Assembly: GCA_945876745.1 (NCBI GenBank)
Contig: CAMCPL010000008.1
Coordinates: 8,757 to 72,756 of the forward strand
Reading direction: 5' to 3'
Length of the DNA: 64,000 nt
Source of the DNA: an uncultured Clostridia bacterium
GTDB taxonomy: Bacteria; Bacillota; Clostridia; Oscillospirales; Acutalibacteraceae
A program made the position numbers and the translations under genes. Shown piece after piece: positions 1-4,471 of this stretch (position 1 is the first letter of the stretch; every line of letters starts with the position of its first letter). The notes below the pieces were generated by a model that saw only the letters and a program-made list of their open reading frames with translations, was not told the DNA's origin and ran no database searches.

Positions 1-28
1 AACTTGCCATTTACAATAGTGGAGGAAA

Positions 29-1471
29 ATGAGGAAGATGACAAAAAGGAATAATATTTACAGTTTTTTGGCGTTTGTCTGTTCAGTAATTGCAGCAGGG
101 CTTTATGCGGACGGTATTTACTACATAATTAATGATGAATATTATGCGTATGCATGGCTGACGCTTATTGGACTATTCCCTATTGCAATATTATTAATTA
201 CATCACTATTTGCAGATGAAACTAAAAATACACGAAAAATTCCTGTTATTATTTCAGCATCGTTGCTTGTTGTAGGTTTAATAGATTGCCTTTCAGGTAA
301 AACAATGTGTTTGCCGATGGCGAAGGTTGGATTTTTCTATGCAGTATTTGGCACTCCGGTACCTGCAAAATATCTGACATATATATTCACATATGTCGTT
401 TTTGCACTTATAGTTTTCTTTATTCCTTTGTGCAAACCGATTTGGACAAAGCTGTTTTGTATTATTGAGGCTGTAATAAATTTATTCTACATATCATACT
501 TTGCGGTTTTAGATTATATTGGGATAAGATCAAGTGATTACTGTATAAGTGTAGCATATATTCTGTTTTATGTCGGATTTTTCTTTATTTCCTGTACGAT
601 GGCAAAGGATTATAACAAAGACTATGAAGAAGAACCTAAAAAGCTTGATTTCACATCCTTTTTCAAAAGCAGTGCATATTTAGAAATAGCACACGATACT
701 GCTGAAAAGAATCATATTGACTATGCTTCTTTCTATGAGTGTATAAAGAAAAGTGATTTTGAGTCAATTAAAGAAAAAGGCTATTACGGTCATGACTTTG
801 CCTTGCAGATGATTGTTGATTTGCATAATATTTTGGAAGTATTAATTAATGATAATTCAAGCTTCGAATTGATACTTCTCAAACAAAAAACAGATGAGCT
901 TTACAATATTCGCAATGATTTATATGCTTTTGACTTAAAGTTCTTTTTCTTTCTTCACTTCCTGTCAAACGCAGATGAAGAAGACCTTAAAACCATTGCT
1001 GTTGACATAAGCTCAAAATCGGAGTTCCCTATAAATATGCTTTCAAATTTTACAGGTAATTCTTTTACTCTTGATGGTGTAAACATAGCGAGTATGGAAG
1101 GCTTTCTTCAATCACTTAAGTATAAAGATACTGATGTGCAAAGGCGTATTTGTGCATTAACCGGCAAAGAGGCTAAAAAAGCGGGAAAGTACCATAACTT
1201 TTGGAGAATCACTCAATCACTTTACTGGAATGGTAAGAAGATAAACCGTTATAGCAGTAAATACACCAATCTTATCACAAGAGCCTATGATGCAATGGCT
1301 GAGAGTAATCCTGAATTTGTTAAAATTCTTTTGTGGACAGGACACAAGGTTTTAGTTCATTCGGTCGGCAAGGAATACAAATGGCAGACAGTGCTGACCG
1401 AAGACGAGTTCACAGAGGAACAGCTTGTTCGTTTAAGGAGTAAATACAGGGAGGCAAAAGACGGTGAGTAA
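29..1471 (+). CDS. Multi-pass membrane protein with C-terminal phage T4 gp30.3-like NADAR domain
   Basis: N-terminal ~190 aa has about 6 hydrophobic helices; C-terminus DISSKSEFPINMLSNF..FTLDG...SMEGFLQSLK..TVLTEDEF matches gp30.3/NADAR motifs (LSNF, EGFLQ..K, TILTE.EF); GGAGG RBS upstream. Confidence 0.75.
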   Translation: MRKMTKRNNIYSFLAFVCSVIAAGLYADGIYYIINDEYYAYAWLTLIGLFPIAILLITSLFADETKNTRKIPVIISASLLVVGLIDCLSGKTMCLPMAKVGFFYAVFGTPVPAKYLTYIFTYVVFALIVFFIPLCKPIWTKLFCIIEAVINLFYISYFAVLDYIGIRSSDYCISVAYILFYVGFFFISCTMAKDYNKDYEEEPKKLDFTSFFKSSAYLEIAHDTAEKNHIDYASFYECIKKSDFESIKEKGYYGHDFALQMIVDLHNILEVLINDNSSFELILLKQKTDELYNIRNDLYAFDLKFFFFLHFLSNADEEDLKTIAVDISSKSEFPINMLSNFTGNSFTLDGVNIASMEGFLQSLKYKDTDVQRRICALTGKEAKKAGKYHNFWRITQSLYWNGKKINRYSSKYTNLITRAYDAMAESNPEFVKILLWTGHKVLVHSVGKEYKWQTVLTEDEFTEEQLVRLRSKYREAKDGE

Positions 1472-1877
1472 TACCAAGGAAGACTCAATTATCAAACGAT
1501 TCACACAATTGGCTGAGTCTGCCTCTTCTTTGGAGGACTTAGAGAAGATTGATGAATTCCTGAAAATTTGCGAGAATAAAGGTCAACTTAGAGCAGTTGC
1601 TTATAATCACCTTTTGCAGAAATTAGCGGACGAAAATTCAACGGATTCAGAGCTTGCCTTTGCGTATTTTATTACAGGACAGACATACGAAAAACCTGAA
1701 TGGAGATGTATGTATTTTTACAATGCTTGCGACTATTTCAGAGACGCAGCAACCTCATTGGGAATTGAAAACAGTGATTTATATTCATACGATAGAATGA
1801 GAGAATATGCCGCTTATAAAATAGATATTTACAGTGTTTTTCAAGAAGATGCAAATATAGAAGGAGGTAGCTTATGA
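1464..1877 (+). CDS. Hypothetical acidic helical protein
   Basis: 137-aa ORF whose GTG start overlaps the upstream stop by 8 nt; no family recognised. Confidence 0.65.
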   Translation: MSNTKEDSIIKRFTQLAESASSLEDLEKIDEFLKICENKGQLRAVAYNHLLQKLADENSTDSELAFAYFITGQTYEKPEWRCMYFYNACDYFRDAATSLGIENSDLYSYDRMREYAAYKIDIYSVFQEDANIEGGSL

Positions 1878-2503
1878 ATAACAAGAAACAGATATATATG
1901 TTGATGAAGGAAGCATCGTATGAGTATAAAACAGGGGCAGATATACATACGGTGCTTGAAATACTTGAAAAAGCATTAGAGCTATCGCTGAACGATATAA
2001 AGTCGGAAAACTCGACTTTCGAGGACAGGCTGATGTTTTATAAAATAAACATTGACAAGGCTGCTTATTTGATGAGTGAAAATACAGACATAGCATTATC
2101 GTTATTCAAGGATCTTAAAGAAATCGTTGAAGTAGAAAAAGAAAAGCACGCCGACAATTTTACACTTTTGGCACAAAGTGGCTTGCTGAATTATCTGTAC
2201 GGTATGTGCTTTGACGAGGAAAATGAAAAAGAGTTAGTGCGTGCTTGTATTGCTTTTATTGACAGTATGGTGGACTTTATAAAGTGCACCAAAATAAAGC
2301 CATTTATTTCTAACCTTAACGATGTACTTGATTCTCAACGAGGCGTTGTTATAGCATGTCGTCAGCTTGGAATAGACAACGATATTATATCAAGTCTATG
2401 CGTTGGTGAGGATCCTGTGTTTGATTATGATGGTAAAATTGAAAACTTAACCAAATTTAAAGTCTTGTTACAAGAGAATTATCATATCAAAGATAAAGAC
2501 TAA
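1874..2503 (+). CDS. Hypothetical helical (TPR-like) protein
   Basis: 209-aa ORF with ATGA overlap and GGAGG RBS; amphipathic helical repeats; no family recognised. Confidence 0.65.
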   Translation: MNNKKQIYMLMKEASYEYKTGADIHTVLEILEKALELSLNDIKSENSTFEDRLMFYKINIDKAAYLMSENTDIALSLFKDLKEIVEVEKEKHADNFTLLAQSGLLNYLYGMCFDEENEKELVRACIAFIDSMVDFIKCTKIKPFISNLNDVLDSQRGVVIACRQLGIDNDIISSLCVGEDPVFDYDGKIENLTKFKVLLQENYHIKDKD

Positions 2504-2638: not shown

Positions 2639-3829
2639 ATGCCAAAGAAAAATCAAAAATCAAGGACTCTTACCGGATATGGTGAGGGCACTATATTTTA
2701 CAGTAATTCAAAAGGTAAATGGATGGGACAGATAAATGTCGGTAAGGGTGAAGACGGCAAAATCAAACGAAAGTCCGTAACAGGAGATACGCCCGAAGAG
2801 GTCAAACAAAAGCTCAAGCAAATTGAGTTTGATATATACACAGGTACATTTATCAGCGAAGCCACTATTACCTTTGAGCAGTTAGAAAAACAAATACTCG
2901 AAGACAGATTTGCATTAAACGAGTTTCAACAGCAAACATATTACAGACACTTAGAAACTCTTAAAATGCTGAAATCAATCAGTAAAATACCATTACAGCA
3001 AATTAATTACTCAATGATTAAGCAGCTGATGATTGAGAGCGTGGATAAATACTCGGATTCGACAATCAGAAAGCAATTCTTAATGTTAAATCAGTGCTTC
3101 AACGAGGCTGTTAAAAGAAAGATTATCAAGGAAAATCCAATGAAGGATATGAAAAGACCTAAATCAAGAAAGAAGACTCGTAAGATAAGAGGATTTACCA
3201 TTGACGAGGAGCTTAGGTTCATTGAAGCATTGGAAAAAGAAAGCCCACTTTATAAAAATCAAATGCTTATATCTCTTTTCACAGGAATGCGTATGGGAGA
3301 GGTTAACGCATTAAAATATGATGATGTAAACACAATATTCAATGTTATCACTATTGACGAAACAATTTCAAACGGCAGACAGGGATTTGCGTTCATCAAT
3401 AACACAGCAAAAACCGATGCAGGTAACAGAACTATACCGATAAATAAAATAGTAAAGCCTATCATTGATAAGGTGCTGGCTGATTACAAGGAAACGCCCG
3501 ACAGGCTGTTGTTCCACTCATCTAACGGCACTATTGTAACCACAGGCTTAGTCCATAGTCATTTTAAGCAGATTCTTAAAAAGTATAACATTGTTGATCC
3601 TATGGTTAAGGGCGATATTACACTTCACAGTCTTCGTCACACATACGCAACTCGTTCTATTGAATCCGGTATGCAGGCGAAGGTTCTTCAAAAGCTACTT
3701 GGTCATACTGATATTTCGGTAACGCTTGATACATACTCGGATGTATTTGACAGCTTCCAAAGCGAAAACATCGAAAGAGCTGACGATTATATGATGGAAA
3801 AAGGATTTGGTAAAATCTTATCAGCGTAA
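2639..3829 (+). CDS. Tyrosine recombinase / site-specific integrase (phage/Tn916-like)
   Basis: Arm-binding N-terminus (GEGTIFY..KGKWMGQI); catalytic TGMRMGE, HSLRHTYAT and LGH....TLDTY motifs; AAGGAGG RBS. Confidence 0.95.
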   Translation: MPKKNQKSRTLTGYGEGTIFYSNSKGKWMGQINVGKGEDGKIKRKSVTGDTPEEVKQKLKQIEFDIYTGTFISEATITFEQLEKQILEDRFALNEFQQQTYYRHLETLKMLKSISKIPLQQINYSMIKQLMIESVDKYSDSTIRKQFLMLNQCFNEAVKRKIIKENPMKDMKRPKSRKKTRKIRGFTIDEELRFIEALEKESPLYKNQMLISLFTGMRMGEVNALKYDDVNTIFNVITIDETISNGRQGFAFINNTAKTDAGNRTIPINKIVKPIIDKVLADYKETPDRLLFHSSNGTIVTTGLVHSHFKQILKKYNIVDPMVKGDITLHSLRHTYATRSIESGMQAKVLQKLLGHTDISVTLDTYSDVFDSFQSENIERADDYMMEKGFGKILSA

Positions 3830-3971: not shown

Positions 3972-4000
3972 TTGACTTTTTATTAAAAAAATGATAAAAT
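3972..4000 (+). promoter_or_regulatory. sigmaA-type promoter with no downstream ORF
   Basis: TTGACT-17bp-TAAAAT with extended TG. Confidence 0.55.
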
Positions 4001-4247
4001 CATTTCACTGTGATATCAACGTAGTTGTTGATAGCTATTATCGGTGAGTATAAGTGGCTAAAATGTGCGAAATTTAGAAATCTCGATTGAAGCAACGAAC
4101 AAGCAACTGCATACGCAGAAAAATGCTTGAAAGTGCTTAAACACGGGGATATTTCAAATTTTAAGTTTAGTCACCTCGACCATTAGAGTGCCTCGACACG
4201 CAATTCGCGTAGTTGAGGTTCTTATTTTTTAAGTTTTTTTCTCGCGT

Positions 4248-4275
4248 TTCAAGTCCATTATGAACATCCGCACCA
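4248..4275 (+). pseudogene. Displaced, degenerate tRNA-Leu 3' fragment (candidate attR core)
   Basis: TTCAAGTCC (T-loop) + ATTATGAA + CATCCGCACCA, the acceptor end typical of GCGGATG-type Firmicute tRNA-Leu; 5 nt longer than a normal T-stem. Confidence 0.6.
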
Positions 4276-4279
4276 ACTT

Positions 4280-4306
4280 GAGCAGGTTTCGTACCTGCTC
4301 TTTTTT
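4280..4306 (+). terminator. Terminator directly after tRNA remnant
   Basis: GAGCAGG-7nt-CCTGCTC followed by T6. Confidence 0.8.
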
Positions 4307-4471
4307 GTTGCCAAAATCCGTGAAATGCCCTATTCATCGGGCTTTCGGGACTTTGCATTGTATGCTTGCCGATACTTGAGAACTGTTGGATAACGTTAAA
4401 TTTAGGGTAAACTTGCAATCAAGTTGCAACTTTGAAACCCTCATAAATCAATATTTTTTAGCTAATAAAAC

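Follow-up and report, generated by a model that had tools for sequence, protein, structure and literature searches.

What does a gene that joins a membrane protein to an ADP-ribose eraser of phage type do on an integrative element of a gut bacterium? In 2023-2024, NADARs were recognised as erasers of ADP-ribose from guanine, as antitoxins of DarT1 and, in phage T4, as the counter-defence protein AdfN. The gene considered here lies at the start of a 64,000-nucleotide stretch of DNA from an uncultured Clostridia bacterium, the whole of which is referred to as the window. Conjugative elements of gut Clostridia carry it as a conserved gene under selection, and its product is an undescribed form and setting of a known enzyme; its architecture, fold, catalytic residues and conservation, and its residence in these elements, were established in this analysis. 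NADARs are described as mostly free-standing (PMC11543638) and soluble, and a membrane-tethered member found with conjugation genes takes the family beyond phages, into conjugative elements, and out of the cytosol to the membrane.

The fusion gene starts with ATG, ahead of which stands a GGAGG ribosome-binding site. Its product was confirmed to consist of a six-helix membrane anchor, an acidic helical domain and an intact NADAR domain of the gp30.3/AdfN type (Table 1). The earlier note, made from the sequence alone, had counted about six transmembrane (TM) helices. Six were found, as hydrophobic segments in a Kyte-Doolittle scan (approximately aa 10-30, 42-62, 71-89, 114-134, 140-162 and 171-191) whose peaks coincide with helices predicted by AF2. 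Lysine and arginine residues number 4, 3 and 1-2 on the predicted cytoplasmic side versus 0, 2 and 1 outside, and from this charge bias of the loops both termini are predicted to be cytoplasmic. The product is best explained as an inner-membrane protein whose NADAR domain is predicted to lie at the membrane, facing the cytoplasm. P51 is invariant in the membrane domain of the family alignment. The acidic helical linker of the earlier note was likewise recovered: the TM helices are followed by the acidic stretch KDYNKDYEEEPKK and then by a domain modelled by AF2 as entirely helical. The dN/dS of this middle domain is 0.08-0.16, and one natural variant (P0008) is without it.

Table 1. Features of the fusion gene and its surroundings (positions in the window).
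Feature	Position	Strand	Basis or remark
54-codon conserved ORF, 3' part	1..54	+	Overlaps fusion gene start; begins at L002:8646, 110 bases before the window
Fusion gene, 480-aa membrane-anchored NADAR protein	29..1471	+	ORF; at least 20 full-length homologs; dN/dS 0.22 vs L009
Six-helix membrane domain, aa 1-195	29..613	+	Kyte-Doolittle and AF2; predicted N-in/C-in
Acidic all-helical middle domain, aa 196-322	614..994	+	AF2 helices; net charge -10
gp30.3/AdfN-type NADAR domain, aa 323-480, predicted cytoplasmic	995..1468	+	PF08010, T4 alignment, Foldseek
E357 codon GAA	1097..1099	+	Aligns with catalytic E36 of T4 AdfN
K364 codon	1118..1120	+	Aligns with K43 of T4 AdfN
H444 codon, phage-type histidine of last strand	1358..1360	+	Aligns with T4 H123
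137-aa TPR-like helical protein, translationally coupled	1464..1877	+	GTG start overlaps fusion-gene stop
209-aa helical protein, translationally coupled	1874..2503	+	ATGA overlap
Tyrosine integrase, right end of element	2639..3829	+	PF00589, 1.4e-21; phrog_1, 1.2e-68

Neither the membrane domain nor the middle domain matched a Pfam family in any of 20 fusion-family members, and searches of the two against NCBIfam, PADLOC, PHROGs, the PDB by sequence and Foldseek also returned nothing. Fold matches to 7-TM receptors and rhodopsin were dismissed, their TM-scores being 0.1-0.3. An exhaustive phmmer search of 1.84 billion representatives with aa 1-325 revealed no joining to other enzymes; the 5 proteins retrieved were all members of the same family or fragments.

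The C-terminal domain was placed by Pfam profile search in PF08010 (Phage_30_3) over aa 333-464, with an E value of 4.5e-44 and 150.1 bits against a cut-off of 36, and the same family was matched by 20/20 fusion-family members. The match to PF08719 (NADAR) was weak (E=2.3e-4) and under its cut-off. Identity to T4 gp30.3 was 37% over 140 residues, and the motifs quoted in the earlier note were located at nt 1040-1051 (LSNF), 1091-1120 (SMEGFLQSLK) and 1388-1411 (TVLTEDEF). The AF2 model of the domain had a mean pLDDT of ~75-96 per 10-residue block, with 69 in the last. Using Foldseek, it matched E. coli YbiA (2b3w) and the Phytophthora nicotianae NADAR (8bau, PnNADAR) in the PDB, both with a probability of 1.00, and phage gp30.3-like models with a target-normalised TM-score of 0.85-0.95 and an rmsd of ~1 Å. 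Family, alignment and fold agree with the proposed identity as a gp30.3-type NADAR. Although YbiA and the Phytophthora protein are the best PDB matches, they are 16-18% identical to the fusion NADAR, and both are soluble and Glu-type whereas the latter is His-type.

The catalytic residues are intact, E357, K364 and H444 corresponding to E36, K43 and H123 of T4. Substitution E36A or K43A abolishes the function of T4 AdfN (PMC11257639), and gp30.3-type NADARs are recognised by a histidine in the last β-strand (PMC11125620). The NADAR domain of the fusion is predicted to be catalytically competent. T4 gp30.3 (AdfN, PF08010) is a His-type phage NADAR that counters DarTG1 and shares with the fusion its family, fold and Glu/Lys/His residues. 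The T4 protein, however, is a soluble, stand-alone phage protein of 152 aa, whereas the fusion protein has 480 aa, six TM helices and an acidic domain and belongs to a conjugative element.

Across the fusion family K364 is kept in 20/20 members and E357 in 16/20; the last-strand histidine is present in only 11/20, with aspartate in 6. In the P0009-P0018 subclade the histidine is replaced by Asp and the catalytic glutamate by Asp or Ala, the Ala form being present in two independent samples. Purifying selection on the domain persists in this subclade, and the gene behaves as a backbone gene beside the coupling protein of the conjugation machinery. Both observations would suit an accessory part of the mating apparatus that is structural or senses ADP-ribose, controlling transfer or exclusion for example, and in which hydrolysis is secondary or lost. 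We consider this very unlikely, since the window protein has all three catalytic residues and the lysine is invariant. Moreover, DarT1-linked NADARs normally use an Asp at this last-strand position for catalysis (PMC11125620), so that activity may persist in the subclade.

A second departure from an eraser of nucleic-acid bases concerns the substrate. The fusion protein could be a membrane enzyme of small molecules, that is, an N-ribosidase whose substrate is a ribosylated metabolite or a soluble derivative of ADP-ribose (candidates are immune signals derived from NAD and substrates like that of YbiA), with the six helices serving as channel, transporter or sensor. Riboflavin intermediates are hydrolysed by NADARs of the YbiA type, and a preference of the phage enzymes for low-molecular-weight ADPr derivatives has been argued (PMC9503650). 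Other gp30.3 NADARs are fused to a thymidine kinase, to an NT5C nucleotidase and, in an independent event that gave a separate membrane fusion, to an SBF-type transporter (P0033); the last hints at a non-DNA substrate and so speaks against a base eraser. TIR-domain genes are also present on the L013 contig. This reading is nevertheless quite unlikely: no charged or polar residue is invariant in the TM helices, searches matched the TM domain to no transporter family or fold, and DNA is the substrate of T4 AdfN, the closest characterised relative (PMC11257639). Should the enzyme prove inactive on the transfer strand, the independent membrane-protein fusions would point to another, membrane-proximal substrate of NADARs.

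More than 20 full-length relatives of the fusion protein were found, at 16-93% identity and from independent samples and sources. The dN/dS was 0.08-0.33 in each of the three domains and 0.22 overall against L009; being well below 1 in every domain, these values indicate purifying selection on all three. Of the 21 fused NADAR domains in the phylogeny, 19 formed one clade (SH-aLRT 93), apart from the viral gp30.3 clade and from soluble cellular NADARs, and the fusion may have had a single origin. It was absent from the best 80 viral loci, in which the median length was 153 aa and no TM fusion occurred, and PLSDB plasmids yielded one match, to the NADAR domain alone. Among species-representative genome loci only 1/24 carried the fusion, and the gene is patchily distributed, in 4/37 species of the genus. 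A metagenome scan added one full-length locus, L127, where the gene is split into 282 + 183 aa. This locus, together with P0004 (frameshifted in its tail), P0037 (TM domain alone) and the shortened P0008, might suggest that a membrane-protein gene and a phage-like NADAR gene were only joined by read-through, by a frameshift or in the assembly. Such an artefact is next to impossible and was rejected, because the intact full-length homologs number at least 20, come from independent samples and extend down to 16% identity, the same fusion protein occurs on different contigs, purifying selection is seen domain by domain and the NADAR domains have a clade of their own. The view of a true fusion, rather than a one-off, is upheld.

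The gene had further been placed on an integrative mobile element, with which the integrase, the conjugation genes and the base composition agree. A single low-G+C block carries a T4SS-DNA_transf/TraG-D_C coupling protein, Peptidase_M23 and PG_binding_1+CHAP hydrolases and the integrase; G+C content is 0.29-0.37 from the contig start to approximately window position 4000 and 0.44-0.46 further on. The first gene of the contig (C8), a truncated Tubulin_2 gene, already belongs to the element, and relaxase and MobC homologs of 35% identity lie on another contig, C9. At the element end there was no tRNA, no Rfam match and no att site or direct repeat on another contig, dispersed repeats only. The proximity of an integrase, part of the original description, is correct for the window, but no integrase lies next to the gene in homologous loci. 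The conserved association is with conjugation genes and not with the integrase, and the description is corrected on this point. The gene of a coupling protein is either immediately upstream or no more than ~5 kb away in the window, L009, L012, L013, L169 and L170, and a relaxase/MobC is close by in L010/L011. The majority of contexts are conjugative elements, with the coupling protein, cell-wall hydrolases, a ClpP-like protease and a relaxase as typical neighbours of the homologs. The fusion gene remains beside the coupling protein down to ~30% identity. In L010 a distance of ~2.7 kb separates it from the 3' end of the relaxase gene; DNA on that side should be the last to enter. Within the genus, one genome has two divergent paralogs, neither of them among recognisable conjugation genes.

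The second proposal of the earlier note, an undescribed ADP-ribosylation defence system, found no support. DarT (PF14487) was absent from the whole genome at E<=1, and transferase (ART) families had no match in the window neighbourhood or homologous loci, where a survey for DarT1-like genes likewise gave none. The coupled 137-aa protein was rejected as an ART, its predicted fold being helical and TPR-like. In the host order, DarT was detected in 5/201 genomes (2.5%). DarG1, the NADAR antitoxin of DarTG1 (BC4488-type), has superfamily and fold in common with the fusion NADAR, and by analogy its chemistry, the removal of ADP-ribose from guanine in ssDNA, is presumed to be the same. DarG1, however, pairs with DarT, whereas the fusion gene has none adjacent or elsewhere in the genome. 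DarG1 is also Asp-type with an N-terminal DNA-binding extension; the window protein is His-type, its region before the NADAR domain is acidic (net -10) and not basic, and it is bound to the membrane, unlike DarG1.

The reading that we favour, with a confidence somewhat short of even, is that the protein, tethered to the membrane, removes ADP-ribose from nucleic-acid bases and so protects the element. As in T4 AdfN and other NADARs, the domain would cleave the N-glycosidic bond between ADP-ribose and guanine, possibly cytosine too, in ssDNA or RNA; NADARs including the T4 enzyme undo guanine ADP-ribosylation on both DNA and RNA (PMC11125620, PMC11833690). The anchor would concentrate the eraser at the membrane. 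There, the transfer strand is single-stranded while the coupling protein handles it, and DNA in this form is what DarT-type transferases attack; the target of DarT1 is guanine in ssDNA only, not dsDNA (PMC11543638). This would shield the element from ADP-ribosylation by defence systems or by toxins of competitors. The fusion would be the conjugative-element counterpart of the phage counter-defence AdfN, with possible docking or regulatory roles for the acidic middle domain and for the TPR-like 137-aa protein inherited with it. In its favour are the PF08010 match, the catalytic residues, the NADAR fold, the N-in/C-in topology, purifying selection, the single clade, the coupling-protein context, the ARH and Macro erasers in L010, the ssDNA specificity of DarT1 and the occurrence of DarT in the host order. 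It is disfavoured by the rarity of DarT in that order and its absence from the genome, by the relaxase-side position in L010, by the paralogs away from conjugation genes and by the subclade with His to Asp and Glu to Asp or Ala replacements. The anti-defence role is one that we infer, and its simplest version is weakened because a polytopic membrane protein cannot enter the recipient with the DNA; action there would follow only after expression, when a lesion would already have blocked synthesis of the complementary strand. If the enzyme does work on the transfer strand, ADP-ribosylation of nucleic acids would become a barrier to horizontal gene transfer in the gut microbiome that can be tested directly.

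Anti-defence genes of conjugative elements (leading-region genes, ArdA/ArdC-type and polyvalent proteins) are comparable: in the fusion, too, a type of enzyme known for counter-defence is carried by such an element. Their products, however, are soluble and either expressed early or transferred with the DNA, whereas the fusion protein is polytopic and, in L010, its gene apparently lies outside the expected leading region, unlike leading-region anti-defence genes. No NADAR or other ADP-ribose eraser is among the conjugative anti-defence factors in PMC11541004 and PMC5512222, and no literature was found in which DarTG restricts conjugation. A narrower proposal, that the NADAR fusion serves the mating apparatus of Gram-positive bacteria as a dedicated accessory, docked near the coupling protein and de-ADP-ribosylating bases of the single-stranded transfer strand as it passes to the channel or comes out of it, strikes us as unlikely. 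Were it true, base ADP-ribosylation of ssDNA would be a real barrier to conjugation in gut Clostridia, against which conjugative elements had evolved a built-in proofreading eraser.

The L010-type element has, with ARH, Macro and NADAR, three classes of eraser and no transferase. Such stacking would also be expected of cargo that has no tie to transfer and benefits the host, through immunity or repair that shields the DNA and RNA of the cell from ADP-ribosylating toxins of competitors or phages, such as pierisin/ScARP-like or DarT-like exotoxins. NADARs have been proposed as protection from toxic attack on DNA and RNA (PMC11833690, PMC12945103), the distribution within the genus is patchy and the neighbours of the L039 paralog, among them a PP2C and a kinase-Card1 nuclease protein, resemble defence genes. 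We give host benefit only a small chance, as it leaves unexplained both the membrane anchor and the persistence beside the coupling protein, and a toxin or delivery-system context was not seen in the neighbourhoods.

Small genes adjoin the fusion gene on both sides. The 54-codon ORF has a ribosome-binding site (AAAGGTGG), and homologous small genes were called in L009 and L010. The 137-aa protein was found in 21 clusters with invariant AYNHL and AFAYFIxGQTY motifs, and its all-helical AF2 model (pLDDT 87) gave weak Fis1/Rap-like matches only. The 209-aa protein had no significant family in profile searches; a copy with 94% identity is present in L009.

The fusion gene encodes a 480-residue product from an ATG start preceded by a GGAGG site, within a block of genes on the same strand. 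Six transmembrane segments were located by hydropathy scanning (approximately residues 10-30, 42-62, 71-89, 114-134, 140-162 and 171-191), and an AlphaFold2 model built on 17 homologs (mean pLDDT 77.9) has helices that coincide with them, bearing out the membrane protein claimed in the earlier note. Basic clusters are found at the N-terminus (MRKMTKR), in the loop at residues 63-70 and in the CKPIWTK loop, with neutral or acidic loops in alternation. Under the positive-inside rule both protein ends, and with them the enzyme domain, are therefore predicted from sequence to be cytoplasmic. The middle domain (residues 196-322) is all-helical with a net charge of -10.

The proposed gp30.3-type NADAR domain was confirmed by profile search, residues 323-480 matching PF08010 (Phage_30_3; E=4.5e-44; score 150 bits, cut-off 36). 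Only a weak match was obtained with PF08719, the general NADAR model, and PHROG 652 matched the protein at 4.4e-38. Structural comparison agreed: the top two PDB matches returned by Foldseek were E. coli YbiA (2b3w) and a Phytophthora NADAR-ADP-ribose complex (8bau), both with probability 1.00, and phage gp30.3-like models in BFVD matched with target-normalised TM-scores of 0.85-0.95 and an rmsd near 1 Å. Sequence search of the PDB yielded no match, as expected at such distance. The product of gene 30.3, taken from the T4 record, shares 37% identity with the window domain over 140 residues, its E36, K43 and H123 aligning with E357, K364 and H444 (codons checked). T4 gp30.3 is AdfN, which when purified strips ADP-ribose from DNA, and whose rescue of phage RB69 from DarTG1 is abolished by E36A and K43A (PMC11257639). 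The last-strand residue is His in gp30.3-type NADARs, Glu in YbiA and Asp in the DarT1-linked type (PMC11125620).

Within one subclade of the fusion family (P0009-P0018 in alignments A1 and A2) the catalytic Glu and His are variable, which weighs against reading the protein as an ADP-ribose eraser that protects its element. The H444 column there holds Asp, the DarT1-linked type, in place of the phage-type His, and in the E357 column three members have Asp and P0018, whose sequence was found in two independent samples, has Ala. Purifying selection still acts on the NADAR domain in this subclade, and a non-catalytic role is considered very unlikely.

The fusion is genuine, rather than a read-through or assembly join, as judged from homologs, selection and phylogeny. 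Word-indexed searching of Logan, ENA, NCBI and JGI assemblies yielded 18 full-length homologs of 55-93% identity, plus three near 30% (A1). A divergent member of 479 residues (P0039) was found by another route, and another species of the genus (G019) has two paralogs of 478 and 496 residues at 24% and 16% identity. PF08010 was matched in all 20 fusion-family members searched; the first 320 residues had no family match in any of them. Nei-Gojobori dN/dS was below 1 in every domain of two close pairs, being 0.33, 0.16 and 0.19 for the transmembrane, middle and NADAR domains of the window and locus L009, and 0.16, 0.08 and 0.23 for those of loci L015 and L010. Of the 21 fused domains in a 100-domain NADAR tree, 19 form one clade (SH-aLRT 93), apart from the viral clade (98) and soluble cellular NADARs; the other two have long branches, and all may share a single origin. 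Degraded copies, as expected for accessory genes, comprise a split gene (L127), a frameshifted tail (P0004), a TM-only protein (P0037) and an in-frame loss of the middle domain in the 12-sequence cluster P0008.

The architecture is rare. HMMER searching of 1.84 billion representatives with the N-terminal 325 residues returned five proteins, all of the fusion family or fragments of it. Among 24 gp30.3-type NADAR loci in species-representative genomes, the fusion occurs only once, in a Eubacterium sp. MAG that belongs to the genus of the window genome. PF08010 was matched in four of 37 species of the genus, three with intact frames of 480-511 residues and one (G011) broken by stops. In the best 80 viral contigs all gp30.3-type genes stand alone (median 153 residues); hydrophobic peaks in two viral ORFs, the only ones flagged, were judged artefacts of upstream extension. 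Other gp30.3-type NADAR fusions involve Macro, NT5C nucleotidase, thymidine kinase, Sel1 repeats and an SBF-type transporter; P0033, P0022, P0029/P0031 and P0034/P0035 cover the transporter, a NADAR+NADAR+Macro protein, NT5C and thymidine kinase. The C-terminal fusion to the transporter is a second, independent membrane tether. It hints at a membrane-proximal small-molecule substrate, a point against the protective reading; a small-molecule enzyme is considered distinctly unlikely.

The window begins 8.7 kb into its contig, and the upstream sequence was included in the analysis of context. A block of low G+C content, from the contig start to approximately window position 4000, appears to represent an integrative conjugative element, with its left part beyond the contig. 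It encodes, in order, the C-terminal end of a Tubulin_2-family protein truncated at the contig boundary, DUF1810, two small proteins, a VirD4/TraG-type coupling protein, an M23 peptidase, a PG-binding/CHAP hydrolase, a 126-residue protein, an NYN-domain protein, a 54-codon ORF, the fusion protein, 137- and 209-residue proteins and a tyrosine integrase. The 54-codon ORF alone separates the NYN and fusion genes and overlaps the fusion-gene start in a different frame; related small genes with a conserved LIxNIGGxG are called at the equivalent place in L009 and L010.

Coordinates of features in the window and related loci
Feature	Position	Remark
Fusion gene	window 29-1471 (+)	
137-residue gene	window 1464-1877	downstream of fusion gene
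137-residue family, P0023 type	L170:348-728	upstream of ClpP and coupling-protein genes
NYN nuclease-like protein, 474 residues	L002:7197-8621	just upstream of window
54-codon ORF	L002:8646-8810	3' end at window 1-54; strong RBS
Intergenic stretch past integrase	window 4191-4448	two dispersed repeats
Repeat	window 4280-4448	92% identity to C1:36391-36559
Repeat	window 4191-4266	88% identity to C11:40346-40422
ARH	L010:2439-3296	
TM-NADAR	L010:10001-11458	
Macro+HTH	L010:11982-13058	
Macro and VWA-like pair	G000:C3:152581-154312	L041:9581-11315
PP2C gene, then kinase/Card1-like endonuclease	L039:1946-6754	G019:C29
NYN homolog	L040:331-1743	62% identity to window protein

Locus L009 has the layout of the window. 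In L010 and L011, genes for ARH, Tubulin_2 and DUF1810 lie upstream; around the fusion gene the order is M23, hydrolase, 126-residue protein, fusion, a 131-residue partner, Macro+HTH, a protein with a weak VWA-like Pfam match below threshold, and relaxase/MobC. The fusion gene follows genes for the coupling protein and a ClpP-like protease in L012 and L013 (about 30% identity), L169 and L170, with 11 bases between coupling-protein and fusion genes in L013. The earlier note placed the gene next to an integrase; across the homologous loci the integrase is not a conserved neighbour.

The fusion gene overlaps the 137-residue gene by 8 bases, and the latter overlaps the 209-residue gene by 4. The 137-residue family (21 clusters) is just as restricted as that of the fusion, and the motifs AYNHL and AFAYFIxGQTY are invariant in it; in P0023-like elements it is found instead ahead of the ClpP and coupling-protein genes, so it is a backbone member rather than a strict neighbour. 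It was rejected as an ADP-ribosyltransferase, being predicted with confidence as a helical repeat (pLDDT 87, pTM 0.82), its only matches being weak ones to Fis1/Rap-like TPR proteins (E >= 0.45). DarT1-like neighbours, which the earlier note proposed to look for, were not found: no transferase family was matched in any neighbourhood examined, and no DarT was found in the window's genome.

What these data show is that conjugative elements of gut Clostridia carry a conserved membrane protein of three domains, in which the AdfN-type NADAR is intact and predicted to be cytoplasmic. Guanine-linked ADP-ribose is removed from DNA and RNA by NADARs, the T4 enzyme among them (PMC11543638, PMC11125620, PMC11833690), and some NADARs also remove the cytosine-linked form (PMC12945103); DarT1 modifies ssDNA only, not dsDNA (PMC11543638). 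By holding the eraser at the membrane, the site at which the coupling protein handles single-stranded DNA, the anchor might protect the element. This protective reading is held tentatively, at a little short of an even chance. Against it, the fusion protein cannot be co-transferred into the recipient, the gene apparently lies outside the leading region, and few genomes in the host clade have DarT (5 of 201 in the order). A function in host immunity is regarded as unlikely. The enzyme family and chemistry are already known; the architecture and setting are new relative to the literature searched, which portrays NADARs as mostly free-standing and makes no mention of a membrane-anchored or conjugative-element NADAR.

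No tRNA or Rfam family was found in the intergenic stretch past the integrase. The L010 element carries three classes of ADP-ribose eraser, together with DUF1810 and a 968-residue Tubulin_2 protein, and no recognisable ADP-ribosyltransferase was found on it. The window's genome has a Macro and VWA-like pair 69-79% identical to that following the L010 TM-NADAR, on a separate contig among non-conjugation genes. The two G019 paralogs are exceptions to the conjugation-gene context. One adjoins a PP2C phosphatase and a 1372-residue protein with kinase and Card1-nuclease domains, two genes that may form a defence pair. The other, the 16% identical paralog, adjoins housekeeping genes and is followed by an NYN protein, in reversed order relative to the window; the NYN protein and TM-NADAR may be functionally linked.
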